Assembly: GCA_031414595.1 (NCBI GenBank)
Contig: JANNVX010000039.1
Coordinates: 1-46,164, forward strand
Reading direction: 5' to 3'
Source: Deinococcales bacterium
GTDB lineage: Bacteria; Deinococcota; Deinococci; Deinococcales; JAAFIG01
Length of the DNA: 46,164 nucleotides
Every line of letters begins with the position of its first letter. Positions within the stretch are counted from its first letter, which is position 1. Shown piece by piece: positions 19,358 to 36,177 of this stretch. Position numbers and translations under genes: made by a program. The notes under the pieces are model-generated. The model made no database searches, was not told the origin of the DNA, and saw nothing but the letters and a program-made list of their open reading frames with translations.

Positions 19358-20449
19358 TCAGAAAAAATTAGCGATTGAATTAATATAAGCGCTCTGAGCC
19401 TTTAAGCACAATTCTTTTTGACTTTTAACTTTGATACTCCTCCTACGAGCATCATCAAAAAAACCTTCCAGTTTTGCAGACATTTCTGATATTGGTTCTC
19501 CACCTATAATTTCGTCGCTCACCATTAAAACATTCGCATAATTTTGTAGGGCGTAAAACAGGTTATCATCCATAGTAAGCGGAATTGATGCAGGAAAATA
19601 ATTGCCGGAACTTTGCATCGAAAATTGAAAACTAGCATTGCAGGTCGAAAAAATATCTACGTCCCCCAAACCTCGCAACTCACCATTTTTCTTCAAGAAC
19701 AAAACTTTACGCAAACTATAATTGTCTGGCGGTTCATATTTTTTGGCGACCTCAAGATTATTATTTGGATTGTTCGCTAATTTAAAAGCTATGTGGTCTC
19801 GAAAAAATAACCTAACAATGGAGGGGTCAAAGTATTTTGTCATTATCGTTTTGTTAAGTAAATACTCGGCAGCAGAGATAGGAGGGGCTTCAAAACTACC
19901 ATCATTTTTTAGCACACCATCTATTCCATTTGGCGATCTAATGAAGTCAAAATCCCACTCCTGCAATGAAATATTTTGGAGTTCACATTTGATTAATTCC
20001 GTATCAAACCGAATAATTTCAAACAAACTCTTAGCTGTTTCAAATTTGGGAATATCTTCATCAAACCGAATTTCTATTTGTAGTTCAGTCTCCAAAAGTA
20101 AAAGCAATTTCTGAAATTGCTTCCAGTGTTCGGACAATGAACCTGACACCTGATTCCGATGAAATTCATAAAAAACTACTGGGCGTATCAATAAATTTGC
20201 ATGGAAATGTTTTTGTGCTTTGAAGTAATCAAAGTAGCAGAGTATTGCAAGAATACCTTCTGAGAAACTACCCCTTGCAATATCTTCCAAACGCATTAGA
20301 ATATTTGAATCTAGCACCATGCGAAAAGGCTCTCTTAAAGAAAGTGCTGAGAATTCTTGATCGAATAGCATTGATAAATTCTTAAAAAAGCGTTGCCGTT
20401 GTTTATCTGGCAGCTTGTGAAATTCTTTTGCGATTTTTTCAATATTCAT
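19358..20449 (-). CDS. AT-rich PIN-like domain protein, probably horizontally acquired
   Basis: PIN-type acidic pattern VLDSNIL / PVVFYEF / GLGDVDI / LTMDDNL; visibly low GC; no CTCGAG found. Confidence 0.6.
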   Translation of the reverse strand: MNIEKIAKEFHKLPDKQRQRFFKNLSMLFDQEFSALSLREPFRMVLDSNILMRLEDIARGSFSEGILAILCYFDYFKAQKHFHANLLIRPVVFYEFHRNQVSGSLSEHWKQFQKLLLLLETELQIEIRFDEDIPKFETAKSLFEIIRFDTELIKCELQNISLQEWDFDFIRSPNGIDGVLKNDGSFEAPPISAAEYLLNKTIMTKYFDPSIVRLFFRDHIAFKLANNPNNNLEVAKKYEPPDNYSLRKVLFLKKNGELRGLGDVDIFSTCNASFQFSMQSSGNYFPASIPLTMDDNLFYALQNYANVLMVSDEIIGGEPISEMSAKLEGFFDDARRRSIKVKSQKELCLKAQSAYINSIANFF

Positions 20450-20475
20450 ACCTAAGCATCCTATTGGTTAAATTT

Positions 20476-20976
20476 TTAGAACGACTTATCTCGAGCCAAT
20501 GAATCCACAGCTTTAAGTAGGGTTGGAATGCGGTGAGCGCCGTGCATTTGCTGTACCCGTAAAGCCGCTTGAATTGTATCACACCCGATGCTCGAGATAA
20601 AAAGCGCTTGCTTGGATGCACCACGCAGAATCGGAAGGCTTGGCGCTCCTATAAAATCAGTTTTTGCTACGCCAATGACTGGAATTTTCTGCTCGAGTGC
20701 CATGTACAACCGTGCGCCTAGCCCATGCTTGAAGCTCGAATCTAAGAACACAAAGCTGTCCACCACAATGTATTCGAGCGGTTCGATAATCGTCCCTAGA
20801 ACTGCAAGCAAACACGGTAATTCGCGTTTGTAAAATGCCCCAGCTTCGTACTCGAGAACATCAGCAATTGGTAGGGTCACGGCTCGAGTGGCGGTGCTGT
20901 CTGACCAATCCTTAAAAAGAAGCGCAGCCGCCAGTGCTTGATTATGGGTGTACTGCACATCGAGACAGACTTTCAT
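20476..20976 (-). CDS. nfi: Endonuclease V-family protein (short type)
   Basis: DVQY, YEAGAFYKRELPCL, VVD, GLGARL, VIGVAKT, HRIPTLLK motifs. Confidence 0.8.
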   Translation of the reverse strand: MKVCLDVQYTHNQALAAALLFKDWSDSTATRAVTLPIADVLEYEAGAFYKRELPCLLAVLGTIIEPLEYIVVDSFVFLDSSFKHGLGARLYMALEQKIPVIGVAKTDFIGAPSLPILRGASKQALFISSIGCDTIQAALRVQQMHGAHRIPTLLKAVDSLARDKSF

Positions 20977-21071
20977 GGTTGGTATTATTGCAGAGCAAAG
21001 AATTTTGTGAATGCGCTGAGTAGCTTAAGTAGGTTCGAGACCAAGTACAAACTCAGTCTCGAGGGAGATAA

Positions 21072-23240
21072 TTATGGATTCATGCGAAGCACAAAAAAAT
21101 CGGTGTCCGTGGCAGATAAAGTTTTGTAACCCGCAATCACAATTTTGCCGCTCGGGTCGGTAGCAATTCCAATGGCTCGGTCTTGTTGAGTAGCCGATTG
21201 TGGAAGGCTGAGAATCCCATTGGCTGGGCTGGTGCTGAATGTGGTGTCGCTTATGCCAGAAGCGCTTAATCTTGCGACAAGCGAATCAAATCCAATGTTG
21301 CTGTTGGATGTGGCGCTGTACCCTGCTACCAGAATTTTTCCGTTGCTGTCTAATGTGGCAGCATCAGCACAGGCGGGGTTAGTGTTTGGGATGTATGAAA
21401 ATTTACCACTTGTGCCAAAACCCGTGTCGAGGGCTGGGGTGGTCATGTTAAAACGAATGATGTTAATTTCGCTTGTGCCAACACAACCTATTAAAATCAC
21501 ATTGCCATTTTGGTAAAGCATGTTGTAGTAATTTGAAAATTGTGGCTGGGCAGTAGAAAAAATTCCGTCGCTGCTAAAGGTTGTGTCTAGTATTCCGTTG
21601 GTGTTGAGGCGAGCTACGCCAACATCATAATTTGAACTTCCACCACCAATAATTATTTTGTTGCTCGAGTCTAGGGCAATCCCTTGGGGCGTGTCGTTTG
21701 GGTCGCCTGTGACCGAAAAAGTGGGATTCCAAACAAAGATGTTCAGTCCAGAGTACGTTCCGCCTGTGTTAAAAGTGGTGTCGAGTGTGCCGCCAGTTAA
21801 ATTCAAGCGAAAGGCAACAATATCAACAAAATCTGTCCCGCCGTAACGGGTTTGGGCGGCTGCCACGACATAAGTATTGCCACTGACGGTTTGTAAAGTC
21901 ATGGCGTTGATTTGGTCAGAATCGCCGCCGACATCTCGGGTATACTTGCCATTGGTGGCAAATGTAGCGTCTAGTGTTCCATTGGTCTCGAGCCGAACAA
22001 TGGCAAAATCGCGGGACGTGATTGTGCCGTACCCTCCAACCAATAATTTGCCATCAGGTTGTTGAATCACCGAAAAAGCAACATCGGCATTTGCATTAAA
22101 GTCTATGGTGATAATGCCATCTGTGCCAAAGGTGCGGTCATACGAGCCATCGGGGTTTAGGCGCACAATAATCCAGTCCCTCGTTGCATTGGCTGCCACG
22201 CCACTCGAGCCAACCAGAACAATTTTTCCATCGGCTTGCACAATCATATCGTTCAGGGTTTCTTGGATGTTACTGACGGGTGCAATGTCTCGTTTACCAC
22301 CAGCGCCAAAACACTGATCCAAAGTGGTTACACTGGTACTTGGTGCAGCCACTAAAAAAGCCGTTGGACTGGCACTCGAGCCGGCGGTGCGAACGCGGCA
22401 AGCATTGGTTACATCTTTGCTGGTGCTTAAAGTTGTGCCAGATAAAACCGCAATTTGACTGGCACTAAAACCTGTGGCTCGAGTGTCTGCGCTACTGCTG
22501 GTTTGTTCTTCGAGGCTTTCGGAGACCCTTGAAACCGTGGGTTGGGTAAAGGCGATAAAGGTCATGCTAAAGCGATTGACTTGGCTGCCGGGTTCGTTGG
22601 TGTTGGGGACTTGTACTCCAACTGTCAGTGTTCCAGAATTGCCAATTGCAAGACTACGACTTGAACTGCTGCCCGTAGCTCGAGCCACATAACCATATGG
22701 GAAGAGGTATTCGCCATTTGGTAATAGGCTGCTGGCTTGGGTTTCTAAGGCTGCCACTTCGGTTTCGGTAAAAAATTGGGTGTCGGCTTCGGAACTTAAA
22801 ACTGTTATGGCGTTGCTCATGGCATGGGCTGGTTTGATGCTTTCGGCATAGGTGGTTAAATTGACACTCTGGAAGTTCTGCACATTCTTTAAGGCAGTTG
22901 CGCCTTGGTTGGTCAGTTGATGCTCGGCAACCAATGTTAGGTCGTTTAAGGCAGCCCCAGAATTATTGGACACATTAAACTTTGCAACTAGGAATTTATT
23001 GCCGCCACTGATGATGGCTTGGAATTGATTACTCGAGAAGGCAACAGAACTTTGATTGCTTAAAAGTGCTTGTGAAGATACTCGAGCAGGCAAAAAAGCG
23101 GCTTTGGCAGTCTTGTTTTGTAAATCAAAAGTCAGTTCAACACTGCCCAGCACCTCGAGTTGATTGGTTTTGAAAGGTTGGTTTTGTTGGCACGCCACAA
23201 TAGTCAGTGCTGCAATAATCGGCAGAAGTGCGCGTTTCAT
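21072..23240 (-). CDS. Lipoprotein with delta-60 (DUF5122-type) beta-propeller repeats, copy A
   Basis: Lipobox IVAC; repeated QxDGKIxxxG and RLxxxGxLDxTFxxxG units. Confidence 0.85.
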   Translation of the reverse strand: MKRALLPIIAALTIVACQQNQPFKTNQLEVLGSVELTFDLQNKTAKAAFLPARVSSQALLSNQSSVAFSSNQFQAIISGGNKFLVAKFNVSNNSGAALNDLTLVAEHQLTNQGATALKNVQNFQSVNLTTYAESIKPAHAMSNAITVLSSEADTQFFTETEVAALETQASSLLPNGEYLFPYGYVARATGSSSSRSLAIGNSGTLTVGVQVPNTNEPGSQVNRFSMTFIAFTQPTVSRVSESLEEQTSSSADTRATGFSASQIAVLSGTTLSTSKDVTNACRVRTAGSSASPTAFLVAAPSTSVTTLDQCFGAGGKRDIAPVSNIQETLNDMIVQADGKIVLVGSSGVAANATRDWIIVRLNPDGSYDRTFGTDGIITIDFNANADVAFSVIQQPDGKLLVGGYGTITSRDFAIVRLETNGTLDATFATNGKYTRDVGGDSDQINAMTLQTVSGNTYVVAAAQTRYGGTDFVDIVAFRLNLTGGTLDTTFNTGGTYSGLNIFVWNPTFSVTGDPNDTPQGIALDSSNKIIIGGGSSNYDVGVARLNTNGILDTTFSSDGIFSTAQPQFSNYYNMLYQNGNVILIGCVGTSEINIIRFNMTTPALDTGFGTSGKFSYIPNTNPACADAATLDSNGKILVAGYSATSNSNIGFDSLVARLSASGISDTTFSTSPANGILSLPQSATQQDRAIGIATDPSGKIVIAGYKTLSATDTDFFVLRMNP

Positions 23241-23392
23241 TGTTCACCATCCATAAAATCCAGCGTCTCGAGTGGGTTGTCTAAGGCATTTGTGCCAATC
23301 GGTAAGCTCACGCCTGTTAATTGCACCCAAGTTGTGTGCTGCTCGAGGTGCGGTGGTGAATACGGTTTTTTTGGCTGGTGCAGGTCATTCAT
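23237..23392 (-). CDS. 51-aa RiPP-leader-like micro-peptide MNDLHQPKKPYSPPHLEQHTTWVQLTGVSLPIGTNALDNPLETLDFMDGEQ
   Basis: AGGAGG RBS before ATG 23392; TGA overlaps the ATG of lipoprotein A; homologous to 25743-25880. Confidence 0.8.
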   Translation of the reverse strand: MNDLHQPKKPYSPPHLEQHTTWVQLTGVSLPIGTNALDNPLETLDFMDGEQ

Positions 23393-23469
23393 AAAAGCCT
23401 CCTGATTGAATTCGTTATGGGTCATTAGAATTTTTCATCCAATGACCCACTCGAAAACTTCGTCTGGTT

Positions 23470-25746
23470 TTAATTCGCGCCAAGGTTGAACTGGGCTAAC
23501 ATTCCCCTACGATTCCCAAGAATATTTGAATCATTAAAAGACCCCGAAACCAGTAATTTGCCATTGCTAGGCGTTCCGAGCAGCAAGGCTGAAGTTACTT
23601 CGGTATCTAATGGTATGCTGCCAGCAGTCAGGGTATAAAACCTGATATGGATTGTGTTGCTAAAAAAGGAATTATCTGGTGCGCCAGTGTCCAAGTACCG
23701 CGCTATAAAAGTACGCTCAATGGTACTACCTGAAAACGAAGTTCCAGCAATCAGAATGCGATTATTGGGCTGAACAATAATTTTGCTGGCTCTGACTCGA
23801 GGAGGATTGGTGTTGGAGTAGGTCAATTCTCCACCTGTCGCAAAGGTTGTATCCAAAGAACCATCGTTATTGATTCGCACCAGTGCAAAACCAGTTTGGG
23901 TTAATGACGGGGTAAAATTACCAGAAAACAGAATTTTTGTGCCTTGCAGGGTAACGCTGGTAGCCGTATCGTCGGTGCTACCAGAAATTCCTTGAAGTTT
24001 ATGCCCAATGCCATTAAAAGTTTGGTCTCGAGCGCCTGTGCTGGTGAACCTCATCAATAAAAACACGCCTGGATTGTTGTGTTTACCCGCCACAACAATG
24101 TTACCGCTTGGGTCTATCAGCAGACTTAAGGCTTGATTGTCTAAACTACCGCCGTCCACATCGTCTATGCGGTAGCCAGTGGTGTTGAATGTGGTGTCAA
24201 GTGTACCATCGGTGTTGTACCGAATCAGTAAGACATCATTATGACCAGCCGTACCATTTTTGACCCGTCCGACCGCTACAATTTTTCCATCCGTTTGCAG
24301 GGCAATATCGTTAATCACATGTTCTGAACCTGTTGCGGAGTAAATCTGGGTGTTGAACGTTTCGACACTCGAGAAGGTCGTGTCGTTACCAAGCGTGGCA
24401 TTGATTAAGCTGCGACCAATGACCAATTGGGTTACACCTGCTAAGGTCACAGAATATCCTGCTCGGATAATACGATTTTGTGAATCAATTGCAAGACTGG
24501 TGTAATGGGTACTGCCTAAAGTGGTTGCCATGGCATTACTGAAGCGCAAAATTTGGCGTGAACCATCTGGTAAAAAGGTTGCGACATACGAACCAGTGGT
24601 GAGATTGGTGTCATCATAGTACGTGCCTACCGTGGCAATCCGACCATCTGATAAAAGTCCAACATCGGTATTGACTGCTCTTTGAGCCGGGAAAACAGTA
24701 TGAACTCCACCACCACCAAAGCAATTACTCAGGTCACTCGAGTTTACACTAGGGGCAATACTTTCTAAGTAGGCTTCTGGTACAGCCGCCGTTCCAGCAA
24801 TTCGCACTTGGCAAGCATTGGCAAATTGTCCGGCTGCATGAATTCCATAATCGGCTAATTCATTCTGACCTGAAGAGTAGAGTGTCACTGCTTCGGCAGG
24901 GGCAAGTCCGCTACGACGTGAAACGACTGCCGTGCTTGATTTTTCTTCTAAACTGGCAGAAACTTGGGTAACCGGGGTTGGATTCTCGAACACCAAAGCG
25001 GTGTAACTAAAACGGTAGGCTGTTGGCACACCGGGTTCGTTGCTGCCATCTACAGCCATTGCCAATGTAGCCGTCCCAGTGTCGGTGCTGTTGTTGGCAG
25101 TAATTGTGCGTTGTGTCGCGGCAGTTGGGGCAACTGAATCTCGCACAGTAAAACCATACGGTAGTAAGTATTCACCACTGGCAAGGGCTGTTCCTGCGGT
25201 TGTGGTCATGGCGCTTAAGTCGTACTCGGTAAAGAGGGCTAAATCTTCTTGTCCTGCTACCACTGCTACCGTGCCGTTGCCACTCATAGTTTGGCTAGGA
25301 CGTACAGTTTGGGCATATGAGGCTACAGTCGCAACCCGCAGCTTACTCGAGGTTGTGGTAATCCCACCAAAATCCGTGACATTTTTTAGAGCAGTATTGC
25401 CAATGTTACCGTTTTTGCGGTACGCGACCAAGGTTAAATTCGACAGACTCGCACCCGTTAAATTACGAACGCTAAATTGTGCATTTAAGAATTTTCTGCT
25501 TGGCGTGGTCTGTGTGGCTGCCGAGTATGTGCCAGCCGTGAAAAGCAATTGGGCTTCGTTGACCAAGGCTTGCCCAGCTATTTTTGAAGGGGTGAACATG
25601 GCTTTGGCTTTACCGTTTTCAGCCCCAAAACTGACCTCGAGTGTGCCAAGTAAACGCTGACCTGTATTGCTCTCGAGTTTCGGGGCGTTCTGGCAAGACA
25701 TAAAAGTTGCTGCTACCAAACCAAATAGAATCATTGTCTTTTTCAT
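23470..25746 (-). CDS. Lipoprotein with delta-60 repeats, copy B
   Basis: Lipobox FMSC; N-domain shared with copy A (NLTLVA, YLLPYGF, NEPG, SLEE, NACQVR); delta-60 repeats. Confidence 0.85.
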   Translation of the reverse strand: MKKTMILFGLVAATFMSCQNAPKLESNTGQRLLGTLEVSFGAENGKAKAMFTPSKIAGQALVNEAQLLFTAGTYSAATQTTPSRKFLNAQFSVRNLTGASLSNLTLVAYRKNGNIGNTALKNVTDFGGITTTSSKLRVATVASYAQTVRPSQTMSGNGTVAVVAGQEDLALFTEYDLSAMTTTAGTALASGEYLLPYGFTVRDSVAPTAATQRTITANNSTDTGTATLAMAVDGSNEPGVPTAYRFSYTALVFENPTPVTQVSASLEEKSSTAVVSRRSGLAPAEAVTLYSSGQNELADYGIHAAGQFANACQVRIAGTAAVPEAYLESIAPSVNSSDLSNCFGGGGVHTVFPAQRAVNTDVGLLSDGRIATVGTYYDDTNLTTGSYVATFLPDGSRQILRFSNAMATTLGSTHYTSLAIDSQNRIIRAGYSVTLAGVTQLVIGRSLINATLGNDTTFSSVETFNTQIYSATGSEHVINDIALQTDGKIVAVGRVKNGTAGHNDVLLIRYNTDGTLDTTFNTTGYRIDDVDGGSLDNQALSLLIDPSGNIVVAGKHNNPGVFLLMRFTSTGARDQTFNGIGHKLQGISGSTDDTATSVTLQGTKILFSGNFTPSLTQTGFALVRINNDGSLDTTFATGGELTYSNTNPPRVRASKIIVQPNNRILIAGTSFSGSTIERTFIARYLDTGAPDNSFFSNTIHIRFYTLTAGSIPLDTEVTSALLLGTPSNGKLLVSGSFNDSNILGNRRGMLAQFNLGAN

Positions 25747-25880
25747 TTGCCATCACCTTCTTGTCCTAAAACCGTGCCAAATGGGAAAGATGCCCCTGTG
25801 AGGCTAATAAATTGCGGTTGTTGCTCGAGTTTTGGGGCTTGGTACTCGAGTTTTTTGGGTACTTCTATGATTTCGTTCAT
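25743..25880 (-). CDS. 45-aa RiPP-leader-like micro-peptide MNEIIEVPKKLEYQAPKLEQQPQFISLTGASFPFGTVLGQEGDGK (not in the ORF track)
   Basis: Hand translation; AAGGA RBS; ATGA overlap with lipoprotein B; shares YxxPxLEQ...LTGxSxPxGT with 23237-23392. Confidence 0.8.
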   Translation of the reverse strand: MNEIIEVPKKLEYQAPKLEQQPQFISLTGASFPFGTVLGQEGDGK

Positions 25881-26063
25881 TATTTTTTCCTTTCCCAAAT
25901 CTTGGGTTTGCGATTTACACGGACTCCCGTTTGAACCGTGACAGAAGCGTATAAATTGGCTCTCTCGCAGCTTCCGCTTGGGCGAAAATCTTCAAAAGCA
26001 ACCCGAAAATATGTAAATAGCAAAACAGTAAAAGTCAAAAAAACCTGTACAATGAGCGTTCTG

Positions 26064-29000
26064 ATGCGCTTACACTTGCTTGGGCAACCTCATTTGGAAT
26101 TGGGCGACAAAGTTTTGCCACTGTCCAAGAACCACAGTCAAATTCTGGCTTGGCTGACGATGCACCAAAAAACGGGGCTACCAATGCCCCGAGTACGCTT
26201 GGCTCGAGCCATCTGGACGGACTGCACCGACGAACAAGGACGCAAACGCCTAGCCAACAGTTTGTACCGATTACGCCAAGAAATTCCAGAAATAGAAGAA
26301 TTTATGATTGGCGATGCCACATCCTTAGCGCTGCAACCAATGCCCACCGATGCGCTCGAGTTCCAAAAACTAATGCAGAGCCAAACCCCACAAGATTGGT
26401 TTCAGGCTCTTGAAATGTACCAAGGCGATTTACTCGAGGGCGAAGATGTACCTTGGTTAGACACATGGCGCGTAGAACTGCATCAAACCCTGTTGCAAGG
26501 TCTACGCCAAGCCATCCAGCAAGCCGACTCGAGCAGGGCAATACTCTTATCGCAACGCCTGATTCAACTCGAGCCGTGGAACGAAGAGGCACACACACAC
26601 TTGATACGCCTGTACGCCGACAATCAGCGCTTACCCGAAGCCATCAGTGCTTATGAAAAACTTGCAGACACCTTAAAACAAGAATTCTCGAGCCAACCAC
26701 GCCCAGAAACCCAAGTGTTTGTTAAAGACCTTGAACGCCAACTTGAACAGCAAAACAGTCAAACCCACCAAATCATGGTTGGGCGGAGTCTGGAATGGCG
26801 TTCTTTAACCAATGCCCTGAATGCCGTAAAAATCGGACAAGGTGGAATTATTTTAGTCGAGGGCGAACCCGGATTGGGCAAAACCCGTTTACTGCTCGAG
26901 TTAAAGTCATTATCGGCTTGGCACAATGTTTCTGCACTCTACGGAGCAGCCGCCAACAGCACACCCGCTTATGCCCCACTCGAACAATCCCTGCGCGGTG
27001 CGGCGGTACTACTCGAGCAAGCCACGCCCTTAATTCAAAAAAACCTCGAGCCACTGCTAAAAACTGCTCTGGATAACGAAGCCCAAGCCAATCCGCAATT
27101 GGTCAGTGCCGCCCTAGAACGCTGGTTGCGTCACCTCGAGCAACCGACGGTTTGGTTACTTGACGACCTGCACTGGGCAGGGGATTTATTCTGGAATGTG
27201 CTAAAAATGTTGGCTCGGGTCAGTCAACAACGCCCTGTGCTGCTGGTCATCTGCACCCGCAGCCAAGAATTGCGCGAAAATCAAAAAGCTTTTGAAACCC
27301 TGCTCGAGATTCGCCAGAACCAACAAGCCATGCACCATGCCCTCGGCGGACTGAGCTTAGAAGAATGTACACAATTGGCTCGAGGGCAAGGCAAGAACCT
27401 TGGCAATAAAGAACTCGAGCAGATGCACCGCATCAGTGCTGGTAATCCACTGGTTTTTCAGGAATTGGTACTGGGAAATTCTGCCGATAACCACCTAAGC
27501 GACGCTTTCCAAAGTCGGTTTTCCAAATTGGATAAAATGGCTCGAGAAGCGCTCGAAGCCGCATCGGTACTGGGTAAGCACCTAGACTTAAACACTTGGG
27601 AAGCGATGTTGGGTGTACAACCACCAATTACACAACTCCTCGAGACTCGGTTTTTGCATAAAGAACCCGAACTTGGTTTCCAACACGATTTAACACGGGT
27701 TTTTGTGTATGAACAAATGAAACTCGAGACACGGCAGAAATGGCATGGGCTGGCTTTTGAAGTCTTAAAAACACAGCAGACTCGAGCGGCTGTTTTAGCG
27801 CACCATGCCGAGGAAGCGGGGTTATTGGCGGAAAGTGTGGAACATTACCGTAATGCCGTATCAGAAGCCCTTAATCTAAATGCGTTTCAAGAAGCCAGTC
27901 GTTTATTAAAACTTGGTTTTTTATACAATCAACAATACCCAAATCAACTCGAGACAATGCACTTAAAGTTACTGCAATTGCAATTAGCTCAAGTCCAAAC
28001 TGCCAGTTTACCGGAAATTGAGGATTTAGAATCTTTAGAACAATCTGCTCGAAAACTTCAAGTTCATGATTTGGTATTCAAGTCACTGCAAATGCAATTC
28101 GATGTTTATGGTCTCAATGGAAATCATGAAAAGGCAGAACTGGCAGCTAATACTTTAATAAAATTTACTCAAGAAACTAATAATCAAGAAAAAGAAATAA
28201 CAGCCTTAACAAAAATCGCACTGCTGTTTGCTAAAACGCATTTTGAAGCTGGCAAAGGTCTAGGCTTTGCGTTAAGGGCTTACAATCTCTGTCAGAATAC
28301 CCCTATTTCAACTCAATTGCAGTTGCAAGTTTTGATTGCAGTAATTAATACACGTATGCGTACCAAAGAGTACGAACTTGCTTGGGAAATTCTCGTAGAA
28401 GCTGAAGAATTGGTTGTCAGTCATCCAGATTTAGTTGGATCAGAATTTTTGTTACTTAACACAAAAGGGAATCTAGCCAACACCTTAGAACACTATGAAC
28501 TTGCAGTGACAGTATTTCAAAAGCAACATAAATTGTCTTATTCCCTCGGAGATAACCGCGCTGTAGAAGTAACTTTAGCAAACTTAGCTGACGTACTTAA
28601 AAAATTAGGACGATTTGAAGAAGCCTTAGTGTGGGCAGAAGAATTTTCGCAAATGATGCCAGCCGCAAAAAACTGGCAGGAAGAAAGTAAAATTGCTTAT
28701 TATTTTTCCGAAATAACAGAAATTCTTGTTCGCATGGGGCGGCTAAATGAAGCTAAACAAATACTTCAACCGTTAGAAAAATGGATTAAAGAAGGTGCAA
28801 CTTCAATAGGTTCAAAACAAATTCTCCATATTTTCTTACAAGTACATCGTACCCAAGGAACATATCAAGAAGGATTAGAATTTCTAAAAGCTGTTCCTGA
28901 AACGATGTATACAAAACTGATTGCTGCCGAACTGTATTACTTAGCAGGATTCAGATACGAAGCTGAACTTAGAATCAGTCAAGCCCTTGCAGAACCAAAC

Positions 29001-29495
29001 CACTTTTCAAAAAATTTTGGGACACTCAGTCTGTTTTACACTGCTTATGTCATTTATCAACAAGCAATTGATCTTGAAAAAGCACGTTTTGCTTTACTTA
29101 GATTCACTAGCCATATCGAAACCCTCGAGAATCGGCAAATCATGCTTAAAAATGTGTACTACGCCAAAGCCATCGAAGCCGCTTGGCAACAACAAACCCT
29201 CGAGACAACTGTTATTGAACTCCCCGCTTTAACTGGCGAAGGCACGATTACAATCACTTGGACACTGAGTAGCGGTGCGTCGGACAAAGCACATCTCGAG
29301 CAACACGGCAAGGTTGCCCTGCGTAATCACCGCTTAAAGCGCCTAATGCTAGAAGCCCAAGCCCAAGGTGCGAAAGCCTTGCAAAGAGAATTGGCAACCG
29401 TGCTAGGTGTAACAGTCCGAACGATTGAAGCTGACATAGCCCAATTAAAGACAGAAGCATCTGTGCCACACGCTAAACCGCAAGCAAATCCATAG
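26064..29495 (+). CDS. Large regulator 1: wHTH-BTAD, AAA ATPase, TPR-like region, C-terminal DUF1670-like HTH
   Basis: MRLHLLGQP, YQGDLLEG, LEPWNEEAH, GEPGLGKTRL, LLDDLHWA, SAGNPL, FQHDL, QRELATVLGVTVRTIEADI. Confidence 0.88.
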   Translation: MRLHLLGQPHLELGDKVLPLSKNHSQILAWLTMHQKTGLPMPRVRLARAIWTDCTDEQGRKRLANSLYRLRQEIPEIEEFMIGDATSLALQPMPTDALEFQKLMQSQTPQDWFQALEMYQGDLLEGEDVPWLDTWRVELHQTLLQGLRQAIQQADSSRAILLSQRLIQLEPWNEEAHTHLIRLYADNQRLPEAISAYEKLADTLKQEFSSQPRPETQVFVKDLERQLEQQNSQTHQIMVGRSLEWRSLTNALNAVKIGQGGIILVEGEPGLGKTRLLLELKSLSAWHNVSALYGAAANSTPAYAPLEQSLRGAAVLLEQATPLIQKNLEPLLKTALDNEAQANPQLVSAALERWLRHLEQPTVWLLDDLHWAGDLFWNVLKMLARVSQQRPVLLVICTRSQELRENQKAFETLLEIRQNQQAMHHALGGLSLEECTQLARGQGKNLGNKELEQMHRISAGNPLVFQELVLGNSADNHLSDAFQSRFSKLDKMAREALEAASVLGKHLDLNTWEAMLGVQPPITQLLETRFLHKEPELGFQHDLTRVFVYEQMKLETRQKWHGLAFEVLKTQQTRAAVLAHHAEEAGLLAESVEHYRNAVSEALNLNAFQEASRLLKLGFLYNQQYPNQLETMHLKLLQLQLAQVQTASLPEIEDLESLEQSARKLQVHDLVFKSLQMQFDVYGLNGNHEKAELAANTLIKFTQETNNQEKEITALTKIALLFAKTHFEAGKGLGFALRAYNLCQNTPISTQLQLQVLIAVINTRMRTKEYELAWEILVEAEELVVSHPDLVGSEFLLLNTKGNLANTLEHYELAVTVFQKQHKLSYSLGDNRAVEVTLANLADVLKKLGRFEEALVWAEEFSQMMPAAKNWQEESKIAYYFSEITEILVRMGRLNEAKQILQPLEKWIKEGATSIGSKQILHIFLQVHRTQGTYQEGLEFLKAVPETMYTKLIAAELYYLAGFRYEAELRISQALAEPNHFSKNFGTLSLFYTAYVIYQQAIDLEKARFALLRFTSHIETLENRQIMLKNVYYAKAIEAAWQQQTLETTVIELPALTGEGTITITWTLSSGASDKAHLEQHGKVALRNHRLKRLMLEAQAQGAKALQRELATVLGVTVRTIEADIAQLKTEASVPHAKPQANP

Positions 29496-29562
29496 AATTT
29501 AGTAAGGCTGTGATACACTGAAACCACCCTGAAGATTGATGGGTGAAATTCAAGGAGAACAT

Positions 29563-29694
29563 ATGTTGAAAAAGTTAATTGCTTTGTTTTTGGTAGTTGG
29601 TCTATTTGCAATGAGTAACAACGCGTCTGCCGGTTGTATCACTATCTCTCTATTGGATGAAACGGGAGCCGTTGTTGGCGTAAGATGTAATTAA
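29563..29694 (+). CDS. 43-aa secreted peptide MLKKLIALFLVVGLFAMSNNASA|GCITISLLDETGAVVGVRCN (not in the ORF track)
   Basis: Hand translation; AAGGAG RBS, TGaTACACT extended -10 at 29511-29519, Sec signal with ASA site, downstream terminator, two paralogues in the window. Confidence 0.85.
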   Translation: MLKKLIALFLVVGLFAMSNNASAGCITISLLDETGAVVGVRCN

Positions 29695-29827: not shown

Positions 29828-30235
29828 TCAGACTAAAAAAATACTTGGCGGAACTTGAAAACGCGCCGCGAATCGCTTGGCTAAAACCTTGCCAATGCCA
29901 CGTTCTCCGCGCAGAATTTTAGACAATGCCGATTGGTTCACCACGCCTTCTTGTGCCAATTTGTACTGCGTTAAACCGTGTGCATCCATCAGTGTTTGTA
30001 GTAATTCAAATGGCTTAGACTCGAGCGGCTTGGGTTCATTGTGCTTTTCCCACTCGAGGGCGTAACCAGCCAGCACACGCCATAAACTGCGGTATGGTTC
30101 GGCGTTGGTGTCGTACTTCTCGATTAAATTGGTGGTGAATTCTAGTAACTCGAGGTAATCAGCTTCGGATTGTGGGGCTTTGATCTGTTGCTGAAAAGTT
30201 TGCCAAGTTTTGATAACACTGTTCATGCTGGTCAT
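29828..30235 (-). CDS. higA: HigA-type HTH antitoxin
   Basis: PQSEADY, LQTLMDAHGLTQYKLA...QSALSKILRGERGI...FQVPPSIF; ATGA overlap with higB. Confidence 0.85.
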   Translation of the reverse strand: MTSMNSVIKTWQTFQQQIKAPQSEADYLELLEFTTNLIEKYDTNAEPYRSLWRVLAGYALEWEKHNEPKPLESKPFELLQTLMDAHGLTQYKLAQEGVVNQSALSKILRGERGIGKVLAKRFAARFQVPPSIFLV

Positions 30236-30543
30236 GATGGTCTGCCTCCTTTGTTCCATTTGTCATAGTCTTTGTGGTTCAGCACGTAAAGTATAAACAC
30301 AGCACGAAATTCAAAATCTATTCGGGTAATCACACGGTATTTGTTGCCGCCAATATCAAAAATAAAAACCAGTGTTCCATCTTTGGCTTTTGCAGTGTCC
30401 ACCGCAGGAAAAAAGGCTTTGAGTTGGGCAAAATTTTCTGGCTCGAGTTTGCAAAGTAAATTGTACCAACCGCGTAAGACAGGTTCGGCTTCTGGCTGAT
30501 GTTCGCAAAACGCTCGTATGGTGCGGTAAGCGATAACATTCAC
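30232..30543 (-). CDS. higB: HigB-type mRNA interferase toxin
   Basis: MNVIAYRTIR, IFDIGGNKYRVI, LNHKDYDK; promoter TTGCAA-17-TATACT ends 6 nt before GTG 30543. Confidence 0.9.
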   Translation of the reverse strand: MNVIAYRTIRAFCEHQPEAEPVLRGWYNLLCKLEPENFAQLKAFFPAVDTAKAKDGTLVFIFDIGGNKYRVITRIDFEFRAVFILYVLNHKDYDKWNKGGRPS

Positions 30544-30649
30544 ATCTCGAGTATAGGTCATTTTGGACTGTATTGCAAGTTCTGTGAAACGACTGAGGTT
30601 GGGACAGCAAAAAGCCTGTGCAAGACTGCACAGGCTCGAGAATATAGAT

Positions 30650-32125
30650 TTAATTCGCACCGAGTTTGATTTTACTAAGCATTCCGTACTGACTACCGGC
30701 GGTGCTGTCTGGAACGAGCCAGCCACCAATCACGAGCCGACCATCGGTTGATGTACCGCCAATCAGAGCCGATAACGCCGTGGTTTTGAAGGTGTTATTG
30801 CCAAAATTATAGATTCGCCGATTCGATGCCACTGGGTTACTAATACTGGTGTCGGGGTTAAAGGTCGTGTCGGCAGCCCCATTTAACAAGTACCGAAAGG
30901 CAAAGACCTGAGATGCACCGCCAGTGTTTTCTTCTGCTCCAATCACAATGATTTTATCATCCGACTGTACCAAGACTTTTTTGGCGCGTAAGGCTTGGGC
31001 AAAAGCACTGGCAGCAATCACTGTTCCACCACTGCCAAAAGTTGTATCGAGCGTCCCATCAGAATTTAAGCGAATCATGGCAAGGACGGTGGCTGTGGTG
31101 GTGGCTGTTCCAACCACAATAATTTTTTGGTTTTGCAGTGCCACACTGCTGGCAGCGTCACCAGAACTACCAGGAATGCTTTGTATGACATGCCCGACCG
31201 TGTTAAAACTGGTGTCTCGAGCGCCAGAACTGGTAAAACGCATGATTAAAAAAGAACCTGTTGTGCCGTGTTTACCGACCACAATGATATTGCCACTTGC
31301 ATCTAGCATCACGCTCGAGGCTTCGTTGTCGCTGTTTGTGCCGTCCACATCGTCTATGCGGATACCTGTACCGTTAAAACTGGTATCGAGTGCGCCAGTG
31401 GTGGTGTAACGCATCACAAAAACATTTTTATCGCCAGTTGTACCGTTTCTGACGTAACCAACAGCCACAATTTGATTATTGGGTTGTACCACAAGGTCAG
31501 TCATGACGTGTTCTGAACCTGCGGCGCTATGAATTGTCGTATTGACGGTTTGGTTGCTCGAGAAGGTAGTGTCGTTGCTGATGTTTGAACCGACTACACT
31601 GCGTCCCATAATCAACTGAGTCCCAGTGGCTGTGGTGATATGACCACCGCGAACAATACGGTTTAGCGAGTCAACCCCAACACTGGTGTAATAGGTGTTG
31701 GTGGCAGATGTTCCGTTGCTAAAAACAGCCCGAATATGGTCTCCGTTTGGGTAATAAAGACCAAGCCAACCCCCTGTGCTGCTGGGCATAACTTGTCCAA
31801 CACTGGCAATTCGACCATCAGAAAACTGGGCTATATCTTCGATACTGCTTGTTCCACCCGGGCGGATGACCCGAAACCCACCAGATGCAAAACACGGATC
31901 CATCCTGCCGACCACACTGGTAGGTGCAATACTTTCTAAGAAGGCTTCTGGGGCGGCGGCACTGCCAGCAATCCGAACCTGACAAGCATTGGCGTAGTCG
32001 CCTAGTGCATGAAGTGCATAATCGGAGGCGGTGTTCTGTGCCGAAGAGTAAATCGTGGTTACTTCTTCGTTGCTGTTACGTCTGGTTTCGATGTCGGTGC
32101 TGGCTTTTTCGTCTAAACTGCCAGC
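30650..32125 (-). pseudogene. 5'-truncated delta-60 lipoprotein gene, copy C
   Basis: The frame stays open upstream of the track start and matches copy B back to GSLDEKAST (~32122), then loses homology and hits a stop with no start codon. About 260 N-terminal aa, including the lipobox, are missing. Ends in LGAN like copy B. Confidence 0.8.
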
Positions 32126-32249: not shown

Positions 32250-32387
32250 TTAGCGGCTTTCATTTACAGTTATAACTGCCTCGCCATGTTCATCTAATAG
32301 CTCGACCAGAATATCTTTAGCTTGAGAAACTCCACTAAACGCAAATACGCTAATAATGAGGAAAACAGCAATCAACTTTTTTAACAT
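32250..32387 (-). CDS. 45-aa secreted peptide MLKKLIAVFLIISVFAFSGVSQA|KDILVELLDEHGEAVITVNESR
   Basis: AAGGAG RBS, TGcTATACT extended -10 (32431-32439), Sec signal ending SQA. Confidence 0.85.
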   Translation of the reverse strand: MLKKLIAVFLIISVFAFSGVSQAKDILVELLDEHGEAVITVNESR

Positions 32388-32541
32388 AACTACTCCTTTG
32401 TTCCTAATGTGTCGCAAAGCAGAATAAGATAGTATAGCAGGTAAAACAATTGGATTCATTGTGCGTACTGTGATTAAAACGAGGGCTAAAAGTCTTAATA
32501 TATGCTCTTACTTCACTTTAGTGAAATAAGAGCATGGTTAA

Positions 32542-32685
32542 TTATTCACCATGCTCATCTAAAAGCTCAACTAGAATATCGGTGCCGCAATTGGATGATG
32601 TATCTTCGGTATCTATAGCCAGAGAAAATCCACTAAATGTGAATGCTCCAATGGCAAGGAAAACAGCAATTAACTTTTTTAACAT
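32542..32685 (-). CDS. 47-aa secreted peptide MLKKLIAVFLAIGAFTFSGFSLA|IDTEDTSSNCGTDILVELLDEHGE (not in the ORF track)
   Basis: Hand translation; AAGGAG RBS, TGgTAAACT extended -10 (32724-32732); start region duplicated with the 32387 gene. Confidence 0.82.
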   Translation of the reverse strand: MLKKLIAVFLAIGAFTFSGFSLAIDTEDTSSNCGTDILVELLDEHGE

Positions 32686-32841
32686 AACTACTCCTTTATT
32701 TCTACGGCATCCTAGAGTCAATTAGTTTACCAGATAAAACAAGAAAAATCTAAAAACAGAAAAAAAAGCCGTTCTGAACCATATGAAATAAGAATTAATT
32801 AGTATGTAAACTTTAATTGCTCGGCAAATCACAGCCAGATT

Positions 32842-35800
32842 TTGGCGTTCCTAACGATGCAGCAAAACCCTAATTTGCCGATGCCCCGAGTGCGTTTGGC
32901 TCGAGCCATCTGGACAGACTGCACCGACGAACAAGGACGCAAACGCCTGACCAATAGCCTGTACCGGCTGCGCCAAGAACACCCAGAATTCGAGGAATGT
33001 ATTGTGGCTGATGCCACCACTTTGACCCTTCAACCGATTTGGACAGACACCAACCAATTTATGCGCTTAATTCATAGCCAAAAAGCCCAAGATTGGTTTA
33101 CGGCACTCGAGCATTACCAAGGTGATTTACTCGAAGACCAAGACATCCCTTGGTTAGAAATATGGCGTGTAGAACTACACCAAACGATGCTGCAAGGGTT
33201 ACGCCAAGCCATAGCACAAGCTGACTCGAGCCGAGGCATTGTCTTATCGCAACGCCTGATTCAACTCGAGCCTTGGAACGAAGCGGCACATACCCACTTA
33301 ATTCGGTTGTATGCCAAGTTAGGACAACGACCAGAAGCGATTGCGGTATTTGAAAAACTTGAACAGACCCTCACCCAAGAATTCTCGAGTCAACCACACC
33401 CAGAAACACGGGCATTTATTGCTGATTTACAACGCCAACTCGAGCAACCACACAACAAACCAAACCAAGCCTTGGTTGGACGCGACCAAGAATGGCGTGT
33501 ACTGACCAATGCCTTAAATGCGCTGCGGGTCGAACAGGGCGGTGTGATTATACTCGAAGGAGAAGCTGGACAAGGCAAAACCCGTTTACTGCTCGAATTA
33601 CAATCCCTTGCCAAATGGCACCAAATCCCAACTTTAGCTGGCATGACTTTTGGTGCAAAACTGCCTTATGCCCCACTCGAACAAGCCCTACAAAGTGCCA
33701 CTGTTCTACTCGAGCAGAGCAGTACCTTAATTCAAAAGAATCTCGAGCCGCTCCTAAAAACCAGTGTAGAGATTGAATCTTCGCCACAAGTCATCAGTGC
33801 GACTTTAGAACGTTGGATACGCCATCTTGAACAACCCACGCTATGGTTACTCGACGACTTACACTGGGCTGGCGATTTATTCTGGACAGTCCTAAAAATG
33901 TTGACCCGAATGGCACAACAACGTCCGGTCTTGCTGGTTCTAGCGGCTCGTTCCGAAGAACTGCTTGGCAATCCAAAAGCCTTCGAGACCCTAACCGAAA
34001 TTCGTCAAACCCCACAAGTGCAACATTATCGGCTTGGAGGACTAAGCCTAGAAGCCTGTGCTGTTTTAGCTCGAGGACTCGGTAAAACCATCAATTCAAT
34101 CGAACTCGAGCAACTGCACCGCGTCAGCGCTGGCAACCCCTTGGTTTTTGGAGAATTGGTACTCGGGCAACCCGCCGAACAACACCTCGAGAATGCTTTT
34201 CAGGGCAGATTCGCAAAACTGGATCAAAAACTTCAAAATGCCCTCGAAGCCGCTTCGGTACTCGGCAAACAATTTGATTTACAAGTTTGGACAGCCATGC
34301 TTGATACCCCCGCCCCGATAGCCCAACTATTAGAAACACGCTTTATCCTCGAGTCACCGACTTTGGCTTTTCAACACGACTTAACACGGGTTTTTGTGTA
34401 CGAACAAATGAGTCTTGAGACACGGCAAAAATGGCACGAACGCGCTTTTGAAGTCTGCAAAAATTTTCAAACCCGAGCCATTTTGCTTGCCCACCACGCC
34501 CAAGAAGCCAATTTGTTAAGCCAAAGTGTGACTTATTACCGCCGAGCCGCCGAAGAAGCCCTAGGATTTTGTGCCTACCAAGATGCCCAAAATTACATCC
34601 AGCAAGCAACGATAAATAATCAATCCCTTCAAGCTAATGTACTCGAGGCACTACATTTGCAACTGATGCAGATGCGAATTTCATTTATTCAAGAGCCGGG
34701 GAATCAATCGGTGTTGGACTTAGAAACTTTGGAAACTCAGACCCGCCAATATCAAGACAAAGACCTAATGTATCACACCTTCGTTCTTAAATTGGGAATT
34801 CTAGCGACTCAAGGAAAAAGCCAAGCAACTTTACAAACCGCTGAGTCACTATGGTTCTGGACTCGAGAAATAAGAGACTCTGTACTAGAAGTCCGTGCAT
34901 TAACGATTAGTTCAGTCACCATCGCTCGGTCTTTTCTCGAGTCAGATAAAGCCCTTCTGTATGCCCAAAAAGCCCACGAGTTATGTCAAGTACACGAAAT
35001 TCCTGCCAGAGAACAATTTCGTACACTGATTGCCCTGACTAATTCGTATATCCGTGCTTCCAATTTTGAATCGGCGTGGCAAACACTTGCCGAAGTCGAA
35101 CAGATATTTCATGACAACCCATCACTGGTTATCCATGCTGTACAGCTTTTTAACATTAAAGGCGCATTAGCTCTTTATGGTGAACATTTTGAATTAGCAG
35201 TAAACGTTTTTCAAAAGCAACTTGACGATTGTTACACCCTAGGTGATGGTCGGCAAATCAATACCACCTTGGGCAATTTAGCCAGTTCGTTAATTAGACT
35301 AGGACGTTTTGAAGAAGCGCTTATTTGGGCAGAGGAACGCGCCGAACGAGCGCCAAAAGCAAAGCACTTACTGAGTGAAAGTCAAGTTGCCTATTATTTT
35401 ACCAATCTCGCCGAAGTTTTACTTTGTTTAGGACGAATTGACGAAGCCAATTCTTTACTCGACCCAATAAAATCATGGGCAATTGCAGAAGGTGCTTCTT
35501 TTTATGCCACAAAAACCAGAGAGGTTTTAGCCCTCATTTTACGGGCTAAAAAACAATTTGTGGCAGCCTTAGAAATTTTGTCGAATACCGAACAAGATTT
35601 AACGTTTCAATCTGAACTGGCATGTTTAGCGGGTTTGCAAGAAAAAGCCAAACCACTTCTTGGTCTGGCTTTGACAGCTACTTCGCCACTCGAGAATAAC
35701 CACTCGGCAATGTGCTACCACTACACAAAGTACCTGATTTATCAAAATCCAACCGTCCTTGAATTGGCTCGTTTTTCACTGCTCAGATTCGCTTGTCAAA

Positions 35801-36177
35801 TCGAAACCCTCGAGAATCGGCGGGTGATGCTTAAAAACGAGTATTACGCCAAAGCCGTAGAAGCCGCTTGGCAACAACAAGCCCTCGAGACAAGCGTTGT
35901 AGAACTCCCTGCTTTAACTGGCGAAGGCACAATTACAATCACTTGGACACTGAGTAGTGGCGCTTCGGACAAAGCCATTCTCGAGCAGCAAGACAAAGTG
36001 GCACTTCGTAATCACCGCTTAAAACGCCTGATGCTTGAAGCCCAAGCCCAAGGCGCAAAAGCCTTGCAGCGTCACCTTGCTACTGCCCTAGGGGTGGCAG
36101 TACGCACCATCGAAACCGATTTTTCTCAATTTAAGACTACAGCACAGGAAAAATCTCTGAACTCGAGTTCAGATTAA
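32842..36177 (+). CDS. Large regulator 2, paralogue of 26064-29495, lacking the first ~20 aa (possibly impaired)
   Basis: Same architecture (GEAGQGKTRL, LLDDLHWA, C-terminal HTH). Homology starts at NHSQI (~32827), with an in-frame stop at ~32800 and no RLHLLG strand. Confidence 0.8.
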   Translation: MAFLTMQQNPNLPMPRVRLARAIWTDCTDEQGRKRLTNSLYRLRQEHPEFEECIVADATTLTLQPIWTDTNQFMRLIHSQKAQDWFTALEHYQGDLLEDQDIPWLEIWRVELHQTMLQGLRQAIAQADSSRGIVLSQRLIQLEPWNEAAHTHLIRLYAKLGQRPEAIAVFEKLEQTLTQEFSSQPHPETRAFIADLQRQLEQPHNKPNQALVGRDQEWRVLTNALNALRVEQGGVIILEGEAGQGKTRLLLELQSLAKWHQIPTLAGMTFGAKLPYAPLEQALQSATVLLEQSSTLIQKNLEPLLKTSVEIESSPQVISATLERWIRHLEQPTLWLLDDLHWAGDLFWTVLKMLTRMAQQRPVLLVLAARSEELLGNPKAFETLTEIRQTPQVQHYRLGGLSLEACAVLARGLGKTINSIELEQLHRVSAGNPLVFGELVLGQPAEQHLENAFQGRFAKLDQKLQNALEAASVLGKQFDLQVWTAMLDTPAPIAQLLETRFILESPTLAFQHDLTRVFVYEQMSLETRQKWHERAFEVCKNFQTRAILLAHHAQEANLLSQSVTYYRRAAEEALGFCAYQDAQNYIQQATINNQSLQANVLEALHLQLMQMRISFIQEPGNQSVLDLETLETQTRQYQDKDLMYHTFVLKLGILATQGKSQATLQTAESLWFWTREIRDSVLEVRALTISSVTIARSFLESDKALLYAQKAHELCQVHEIPAREQFRTLIALTNSYIRASNFESAWQTLAEVEQIFHDNPSLVIHAVQLFNIKGALALYGEHFELAVNVFQKQLDDCYTLGDGRQINTTLGNLASSLIRLGRFEEALIWAEERAERAPKAKHLLSESQVAYYFTNLAEVLLCLGRIDEANSLLDPIKSWAIAEGASFYATKTREVLALILRAKKQFVAALEILSNTEQDLTFQSELACLAGLQEKAKPLLGLALTATSPLENNHSAMCYHYTKYLIYQNPTVLELARFSLLRFACQIETLENRRVMLKNEYYAKAVEAAWQQQALETSVVELPALTGEGTITITWTLSSGASDKAILEQQDKVALRNHRLKRLMLEAQAQGAKALQRHLATALGVAVRTIETDFSQFKTTAQEKSLNSSSD

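Follow-up and report, generated by a model that had tools for sequence, protein, structure and literature searches.

Two short open reading frames (micro-ORFs) in a contig of an uncultured Deinococcales bacterium are probably precursors of a cyclase-less, lasso-derived pathway for peptides that are ribosomally synthesised and then modified after translation (RiPPs), of the linear polyphosphorylated peptide (LPP) kind, whose enzymes are encoded elsewhere in the genome. The contig (JANNVX010000039.1 of assembly GCA_031414595.1, 46,164 nucleotides, here called the window) carries each micro-ORF directly before the gene of a large lipoprotein. The precursor is fixed before the lipoprotein gene across three families, with 10-25 copies per genome in the window's lineage. 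Other contigs of the assembly are given below as C plus number (the window is C39), and other genomes and loci as G and L plus number.

Peptide-lipoprotein units in the window and its relatives

The window contains two tandem units on the minus strand. Unit B consists of a 45-aa ORF (peptide B, 25746..25880) followed by a 758-aa lipoprotein (lipoprotein B, 23470..25746), and unit A of a 51-aa ORF (peptide A, 23240..23392) followed by a 722-aa lipoprotein (lipoprotein A, 21072..23240), both peptides being defined from their ORFs and translations. Peptide A, whose ATG is preceded by the Shine-Dalgarno sequence AGGAGG, comprises a leader (K-K-P-Y-S-P-P-H-L-E-Q-H...L-T-G), a core start (V-S-L-P-I-G-T) and an acidic tail ending in G-E-Q, and was the best-scoring member of the family with our own hidden Markov model (HMM; E 2.9e-24). 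Peptide B is more divergent (leader Y-x-x-P-x-L-E, then T-G-A-S-F-P-F-G-T and a short acidic tail) and was detected by our own HMM (E 1.4e-12) and also by the peptide profile. The two peptides are identical at 18 of 41 aligned residues (E 1e-9), and the two lipoproteins share 29% identity (E 1e-66). Both lipoproteins carry a lipobox signal peptide (lipobox ends IVAC and FMSC), an N-terminal domain (N-domain; ~22416-23240 in A, E 8.8e-99; ~24871-25746 in B, E 4.2e-87) and delta-60/DUF5122 repeats, of the beta-propeller kind in B, and both passed the delta-60 model TIGR02608 (214.9 and 153.9 bits for A and B, cut-off 76.5). These results confirmed the initial annotation, which had described two related micro-ORFs, each coupled to a delta-60 lipoprotein, with both peptide stop codons overlapping the lipoprotein ATG as ATGA; the unit that it saw twice in the window recurs, with 16 peptide frames genome-wide.

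To define the family, the window's own 4.49-Mb genome, which is present in freshwater-sediment samples, was searched with a single peptide, which matched 14 places, and a same-strand lipoprotein of 468-1279 aa followed in all 14. An HMM built from those 14 then found 16 frames, of which 15 are full and one, on C102, is truncated. Among the 21 genome frames with an N-domain, a peptide frame lay directly upstream of 15 and of none of the other 6, and no motif was seen in the upstream regions of these 6 when they were read. The junction in the 15 genome copies was ATGA in 14 and TAATG in one, and the lipoprotein Shine-Dalgarno sits within the last 4-5 peptide codons. The peptides end in a Gly/Glu-rich 'GEQ' because these last codons carry the lipoprotein Shine-Dalgarno and the ATGA junction. 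A Pup/UBact-like ligation end was considered for this C-terminus and ruled out, as the codons are those of the Shine-Dalgarno (GGTGA/GGAGG) plus the junction. Conserved residues are written with mixed synonymous codons (Tyr as TAC 8 and TAT 7 times; Pro as CCA 6, CCG 7 and CCT 2 times; Gly with four and Ser with six codons), so that selection acts on the protein. The exception was Leu-Glu, written CTCGAG in 13 of the 15 copies; a DNA-level signal of the element was ruled out here, the hexamer being hyper-abundant throughout the genome, where it is the commonest of all (23,235 copies, 5.2 per kb, 235 of them in the window).

Within the window's family the peptide profile matched 15 of 18 genomes, with as many as 15 copies in a genome; it gave one weak match among 22 genomes of four other families, and matched 13 of the 301 genomes of a phylum-wide sample (f1 7/9, f3 3/112, f5 2/62, f2 0/103, f4 0/14). 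The initial annotation had proposed looking for the motif upstream of homologous lipoproteins elsewhere; it was present at 13 of 13 loci of relatives (11 distinct, since two pairs look like the same DNA twice), where the peptide precedes an N-domain lipoprotein, and in other families as well. A profile search of a 5.8-billion-protein collection returned 157 proteins at E<=1e-3, all of them unnamed or 'hypothetical' and none with a Pfam domain. The nearest ESM Atlas clusters were unnamed (0.90-0.91), and lasso-type names appeared at 0.80-0.83, which serves as a lead only.

The alignment of 50 peptides showed that Y, P, L, G, S and P were invariant and that E, T, L, I, G and T were kept at >=90%, with the consensus K-x-P-Y-x-x-P-x-L-E-x-H-x6-T-G-[VI]-S-L-P-I-G-T. 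The Tyr-to-Thr distance, counted on 49 of the 50 peptides (one was not fitted by the regular expression), was 15 in 39, 14 in 9 and 12 in one. A distance of 15 equals that of the lasso leader motif, Y(-17), P(-14), L(-12), T(-2), as set out in PMC6784204, and the leader pattern that had been read from the two window peptides, YxxPxL followed by Thr, therefore holds for the family. After the leader come an invariant Gly-x-Ser-x-Pro stretch and a variable acidic tail. None of the 49 peptides has Asp or Glu at positions 7-9 after Thr-Gly, as had been noticed for the window pair, and the first acid stands at 10-17. The peptides have no signal peptide; the paired lipoproteins have a Sec-type lipoprotein signal.

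The delta-60 partner named in the initial annotation was right for both window copies and did not hold as the constant partner, since the constant part is the N-domain. The N-domain lipoproteins of the genome share this N-terminal domain of ~280 aa and then diverge, and the delta-60 payload is carried by some members only. C-terminal payloads were assigned in 20 of the 21, namely FG-GAP, delta-60/DUF5122, SBBP, RCC1, S8 subtilase, Exo_endo_phos with lamin-tail and Big_2 domains, cadherin-like repeats, PKD with a non-specific endonuclease domain, and CarboxypepD_reg. The Cys at the aligned lipobox position was invariant in 25 sequences, the N-domains of paralogues are 26-43% identical, and no Pfam family was found in the 14 members scanned. 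An AlphaFold2 model of lipoprotein A residues 1-290 gave a beta-sandwich (predicted local distance difference test score, pLDDT, 72; predicted template modelling score 0.75), for which Foldseek returned no match at E<=1e-3 and VIA-align gave best Z values of 6.5 (WSSV VP37) and 5.3 (SadB lipoprotein), within the common beta-sandwich range. When the N-domain (residues 18-272, alignment of 25 rows) was co-folded with the peptide (alignment of 50 rows), the score was 0.00 against a mark of 0.32, a result that counts neither way. The analysis defines a large lipoprotein N-domain, so far outside any family, which carries many different extracellular payloads.

Enzyme genes in trans and their linkage to the units

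The absence of a cyclase, protease and RiPP recognition element (RRE) from the window, as initially annotated, was upheld by searches of the window contig, which gave no RRE, B2 or cyclase match. The genome-wide search for partners that had been suggested there found a PqqD-type RRE, a transglutaminase-like B2 protease and a nucleotidyltransferase, all in trans. An 83-aa PqqD-type RRE gene overlaps a 310-aa P-loop kinase-like gene of the PEPCK/HprK fold at C75:68077-69257. The RRE passed PF05402 (58.4 bits, cut-off 23.4), and its profile matched the solved lasso RREs TbiB1 (2.2e-10) and TfuB1 (1.3e-9). The 310-aa protein has an invariant GxSGxGKT (Walker A) motif, and its AlphaFold2 model (pLDDT 92.6) matched PEPCK best in Foldseek (1oen, E 5.5e-9). 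The phosphoenolpyruvate (PEP) carboxykinase fold class is shared with HPr kinase, and the call of a kinase here combines the fold, the Walker A motif and sub-threshold family matches. A second locus (C46 ~20759-23292) encodes a 442-aa fusion of an NTP_transf_5 nucleotidyltransferase with a lasso-B2-type peptidase (PF14907 96.4 bits, PF13471 53.4 bits; lasso_biosyn_B2 NF033537 47.7 bits, cut-off 33), followed by an MFS_3 pump gene (158 bits). The RRE-kinase pair lies 2.6 kb from the peptide-lipoprotein cassette on C75, a closeness that is not kept within the genus; linkage is confined to loci outside the family. The genome also holds a canonical lasso cluster on the minus strand of C58 (12927-16953) with a cyclase of 545 aa, a B2 of 118 aa, a B1 of 90 aa, a 492-aa ORF and a candidate precursor.

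Across the family, enzyme genes and peptides either occur together or are absent together. The 18 relatives comprised 15 with peptides, 16 with the N-domain, 14 with the RRE, 12 with the kinase-like gene and 13 with the fusion gene; the C58-type lasso cyclase was found in 2 of the 18 and in 0 of 22 others. No genome among the 18 had the enzymes without the peptides. Three genomes (G009, G010 and G012, 87-91% complete) have neither peptides nor any of the three enzyme genes. G007 (94% complete) has 15 N-domain lipoproteins, one peptide and none of the enzyme genes; six of its lipoprotein upstream regions were read and none held a peptide, while a seventh, taken as positive control, holds the genome's one copy.

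Linkage of these genes was then assessed outside the family. At four of the five loci with phylum matches, the RRE and kinase-like genes adjoin the peptide and the N-domain lipoprotein. The order is RRE, kinase-like, peptide and lipoprotein in one direction in G090; in G181 the RRE and kinase-like genes are followed by the fusion gene on the opposite strand and then by peptide and lipoprotein; in G104 and G161 the RRE and kinase-like genes diverge from a run of peptide, lipoprotein and fusion gene. Only the peptide-lipoprotein pair is in view in G253, with the kinase-like gene on another contig. The kinase-like family occurs in 75 of the 301 phylum-sample genomes, including 49 of 100 in genus g7, and the source names of its homologues are from Deinococcus species. 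Six of eight further loci with a kinase-like match had the RRE and kinase-like genes beside a peptide frame and a lipoprotein of 1200-1340 aa whose N-domain match is weak, and the remaining two were cut by contig ends, so that the RRE-kinase pair is linked to the peptide-lipoprotein pair in 10 of 13 loci outside the family. In one of the six the peptide comes after the lipoprotein, not before it. A lamin-tail domain was found in five of these six lipoproteins, one of which also has Exo_endo_phos; the G104 lipoprotein and the copy on C6 of the window's genome have the same EEP plus lamin-tail make-up. The fusion gene lies inside the same cluster in L102, L104, L105, L121 and L122. Four of 12 fusion loci have the MFS_3 pump beside the fusion gene and one has it beside the RRE-kinase pair; no ABC (ATP-binding cassette) gene was seen there.

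The proposed pathway and its alternatives

The closest known system is the LPP family. According to the main text of PMC13381572 (Popov et al. 2026), LPPs are linear polyphosphorylated peptides of Bacillota made by lppA-K-B-S-D-N clusters, which hold a precursor, an HprK-like kinase, a discrete RRE, a SipW-like leader peptidase, an MsbA-like pump and a nucleoside triphosphate (NTP) transferase, with no cyclase. The precursor consensus given there is YxxPxVLxHQxIxFETxxS; the leader is cut after Thr, and the Ser three residues later receives 1-4 phosphates, which are lost in a Ser-to-Ala mutant. The same text states that LPPs are confined to Bacillota and that their biological role is unknown. 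Both systems, as far as that text describes LPPs, combine a stand-alone RRE, a kinase like HprK and an NTP transferase without a macrolactam cyclase, and share YxxPx[V/L], a Tyr-to-Thr distance of 15, a Thr-to-Ser distance of 3 and a His at +8. They differ from the main-text description of LPPs in the leader peptidase, here a lasso-B2-type domain fused to the NTP transferase instead of a SipW-like signal peptidase, and in the pump, here MFS_3 instead of an MsbA-like ABC transporter. Component searches of the 13 linked loci, which covered RRE, kinase-like, fusion, MFS, peptide and N-domain, turned up no SipW-like peptidase, and no profile aimed at that peptidase was run there. Further differences are that the enzymes lie at two loci in trans to ~16 dispersed precursors, that each precursor is coupled to a lipoprotein gene, and that the carriers are Deinococcota, as against the Bacillota-only range stated for LPPs in the main text. 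Because the gene set and precursor motif match the cyclase-less LPP family of PMC13381572, at least in its main-text form, we regard the system as an LPP variant and not as a new RiPP class. The initial annotation's idea of a new RiPP class matured in trans is thus supported in its second part, since there are partners in trans, which co-occur with the peptides and in other genomes are also linked to them, and is not supported in its first. LPP logic, described only in 2026 and as Bacillota-only in the main text of that paper, appears in Deinococcota with another leader peptidase and another pump. The main text of PMC13381572 contains neither 'lipoprotein' nor 'Deinococc', and its supplementary taxa and cluster tables could hold such cases; our literature searches returned no earlier paper on this precursor-lipoprotein system.

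By analogy with LppB/LppK and paeninodin-type kinases, the RRE would bind the precursor leader, the kinase-like protein would add one or more phosphates to the invariant Ser, the nucleotidyltransferase may extend the Ser phosphate, the B2 domain would remove the leader next to the conserved Thr, and the MFS pump would export the linear product. The precursor-plus-lipoprotein module has been copied 10-25 times in the window's family while the enzymes stayed single-copy, and the enzymes would therefore act in trans on many precursors. Prochlorosin-type lanthipeptides likewise have a single-copy modifying machinery and many precursors scattered over the genome, with hypervariable cores. The likeness lies in one machinery serving many dispersed precursors; the chemistry and recognition differ, and here the core start hardly varies and each gene comes with a lipoprotein. 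Paeninodin and pseudomycoidin, phosphorylated or phosphoglycosylated lasso peptides covered in the review PMC8498205, are closer in composition, with a B1-type RRE, a B2-type peptidase, an HPr-kinase homologue, a nucleotidyltransferase and a lasso-type leader motif in that account. The present system differs from them, as they are presented there, in having no cyclase and no ring-closing Asp/Glu; and paeninodin-type kinases, in the same account, act on a C-terminal Ser, whereas the peptides here end in Gln, Pro, Lys or Leu and their Ser is internal.

A number of points weigh against this pathway. Phosphorylation, leader cleavage and export of the precursors we infer by analogy. The kinase-like protein passes no curated family cut-off, its HprK_rel_A and ScmC matches being weak and sub-threshold, and in the phylum sample its family is far wider (75/301) than the peptide profile (13/301). 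The eight further loci come from 8 of 63 further non-family genomes with a kinase-like match, taken so as to spread over genera and scores. Three of the six linked peptides among them score poorly with the profile (E 0.01-0.22) and were identified from a motif, P-Y-x-x-P-x-hydrophobic-x-P-hydrophobic-G-x-W-x3-T-L-x-x-S-hydrophobic-P. In Deinococcus-type loci the Ser stands four residues after the Thr, not three, which leaves it uncertain where the leader is cut and how the acceptor Ser should be numbered. Three relatives (G004, 57% complete; G017, 82%; G002, 82%) have peptides and miss one or two enzyme genes in the assembly. Because related genomes are not independent, the co-occurrence amounts to perhaps three or four separate loss events. 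Finally, the peptide is absent at 6 of 21 N-domain lipoproteins here and at 14 of 15 in G007, so the lipoprotein does not depend on the peptide.

Other explanations account for less of the evidence. The peptide could be an unmodified partner or helper of its lipoprotein that binds the N-domain or the nascent chain as a chaperone, plug or targeting aid, with the RRE-kinase genes unrelated. The strict adjacency and translational coupling in 15 of 15 genome copies, seen also in relatives and other families, would suit such a helper. We consider it unlikely, however, since the peptide lacks a signal peptide, whereas export of the lipoprotein uses a Sec-type lipoprotein signal, since G007 retains 15 lipoproteins with one peptide, and since the linkage and co-occurrence with the RRE, kinase-like and B2 genes would be left unexplained. 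Moreover, the motif is nearly invariant beside N-domains that are only 26-43% identical, which fits one shared partner of the conserved residues, namely the enzymes, better than many co-evolving ones. There is also little to be expected of a translation-control leader ORF, in which the micro-ORF would drive or gate lipoprotein translation by coupling or nascent-chain stalling and the peptide itself would be functionless. Such a role agrees with the ATGA/TAATG overlap in 15 of 15 copies and with the lipoprotein Shine-Dalgarno within the last 4-5 codons, but the conserved positions, found 20-40 codons ahead of the stop, are preserved as amino acids with mixed codons and form a known RRE-binding motif, and G007 has lost the ORFs along with the enzyme genes but retained the lipoprotein genes. 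The known arrest peptides that monitor secretion have a signal or membrane segment, unlike these peptides.

True lasso peptides, as extra substrates of the C58 cluster cyclised in trans, are very improbable. The peptides resemble lasso precursors and their machinery in the YxxPxL plus Thr(-2) leader, the B1 RRE and the B2 peptidase; the leader spacing fits, the C58 cluster is present in the genome, and among named ESM Atlas clusters lasso families come nearest (0.80-0.83, again a lead only). They differ in having no ring-forming Asp/Glu and no cyclase that goes with the precursors. Because the only lasso-type cyclase, that of C58, occurs in 2 of 18 family relatives (0 of 22 others), compared with 15 of 18 for the peptides, and because 0 of 49 peptides have Asp/Glu at 7-9 after Thr-Gly, they are not lasso peptides, and maturation in trans by the C58 cluster was ruled out on the same two grounds. 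No cyclase was among the components searched in the 13 non-family loci, where no Asn-synthase search was made. Chance open frames without a product, for which only the small ORF size speaks, are already refuted by conservation and have next to no probability left: there are 16 paralogues and 157 database relatives, amino-acid conservation with synonymous variation, and an own Shine-Dalgarno.

The lipoprotein pairing is the new part of the proposed LPP-like system. We infer that peptide and lipoprotein have a joint role at the cell envelope, since the two have stayed neighbours throughout the phylum. A bolder suggestion, to which we give a minor chance, is that the two form one envelope device, in which the exported linear phospho- or phosphoglycosyl-peptide would serve the N-domain as ligand, anchor or substrate. 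The RiPP machinery would then 'arm' or tether surface lipoproteins with interchangeable payloads, such as beta-propellers, subtilase, nuclease/phosphatase-type EEP domains and cadherin-like repeats. The ancestral partner was likely the large lamin-tail lipoprotein inside the cluster, in some loci with an EEP domain; this lamin-tail/EEP lipoprotein could even be an enzyme that processes the phosphorylated peptide outside the cell. If the device exists, it would give LPP-type peptides their first biological role and represent a novel way to build surface proteins. Function can be approached through the defined protein partner, through G007 as a natural 'knock-out' genome and through cultured carriers of the Deinococcus type whose cluster is single-copy.

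Other features of the window and the genome

Lipoprotein B's stop is separated from the start of precursor A by a 77-nt spacer, in which RNA folding gives a 13-bp hairpin (23417..23450, minus strand; -26.4 kcal/mol, z -4.4, matched by 0 of 200 shuffles) without a following T-run. Its stem was conserved in two related loci from metagenome-assembled genomes, with a different loop in one, and it may be a putative RNA end, processing site or stabiliser. A promoter and terminator scan of window positions 20300-26300 gave counts no higher than shuffles. A signal peptidase I gene (Peptidase_S26, 40367-41026, minus strand) lies 14 kb from the cassettes, with no linkage seen elsewhere; it is of interest because LPP clusters use a signal-peptidase-like leader peptidase.

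Some neighbourhoods and enzyme loci elsewhere are also of note. C86:38621-41655 (minus strand), L101 (6072-8655) and L102 (8942-11512) show a conserved downstream neighbourhood, in which the C86 cassette and the single-copy loci of G090 and G181 are each followed by three phage-tail-collar-domain genes and a periplasmic-binding-protein-like gene. The 492-aa ORF of the C58 lasso cluster is taken for a putative ABC exporter. The candidate precursor of that cluster has a Val in place of the Tyr of the RRE motif, which could be relevant to substrate separation between two RRE systems of the same cell. A second PqqD-like gene with an HprK_rel_A-like protein is found at C85:5460-9792 (minus strand), together with three ORFs with glycosyltransferase-like N-termini and a possible nucleotidyltransferase; no precursor was seen, and the locus is a separate RRE-kinase system.

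The window units are flanked by a divergent STAND-type regulator (25938..29495, plus strand) with BTAD, AAA_16, TPR and DUF1670 domains by Pfam, and similar large regulators, judged from N-terminal sequence only, adjoin the C49 and C18 cassettes and lie 5 kb from the C75 cassette. Three small paralogous ORFs begin in a signal-peptide-like way, MLKKLIA[V/L]FL... (29536-29694, plus strand; 32250-32459 and 32542-32721, minus strand); each adjoins a BTAD-AAA_16-TPR-DUF1670 regulator (25938-29495 or 32842-36177) and may form a secreted-peptide plus TPR-regulator pair with it. A third delta-60 gene (30650-32010, minus strand, 421 aa) has no signal peptide, N-domain or precursor ORF; its upstream frame still reads like the lipoprotein B linker, and it looks like a 5'-truncated paralogue. 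A HigB-like toxin and a helix-turn-helix (HigA-like) antitoxin pair (29828-30729, minus strand) lies between the regulator and this truncated gene. Genome-wide, CTCGAG is ~3x as common as the next-commonest hexamers, which are themselves its overlaps, and several GC-rich palindromes are almost absent (GGGCCC 0, TGCGCA 2, GGCGCC 3, GTGCAC 6, CGCGCG 3), a pattern that looks like a HIP1-like hyper-abundant palindrome with restriction-site avoidance.

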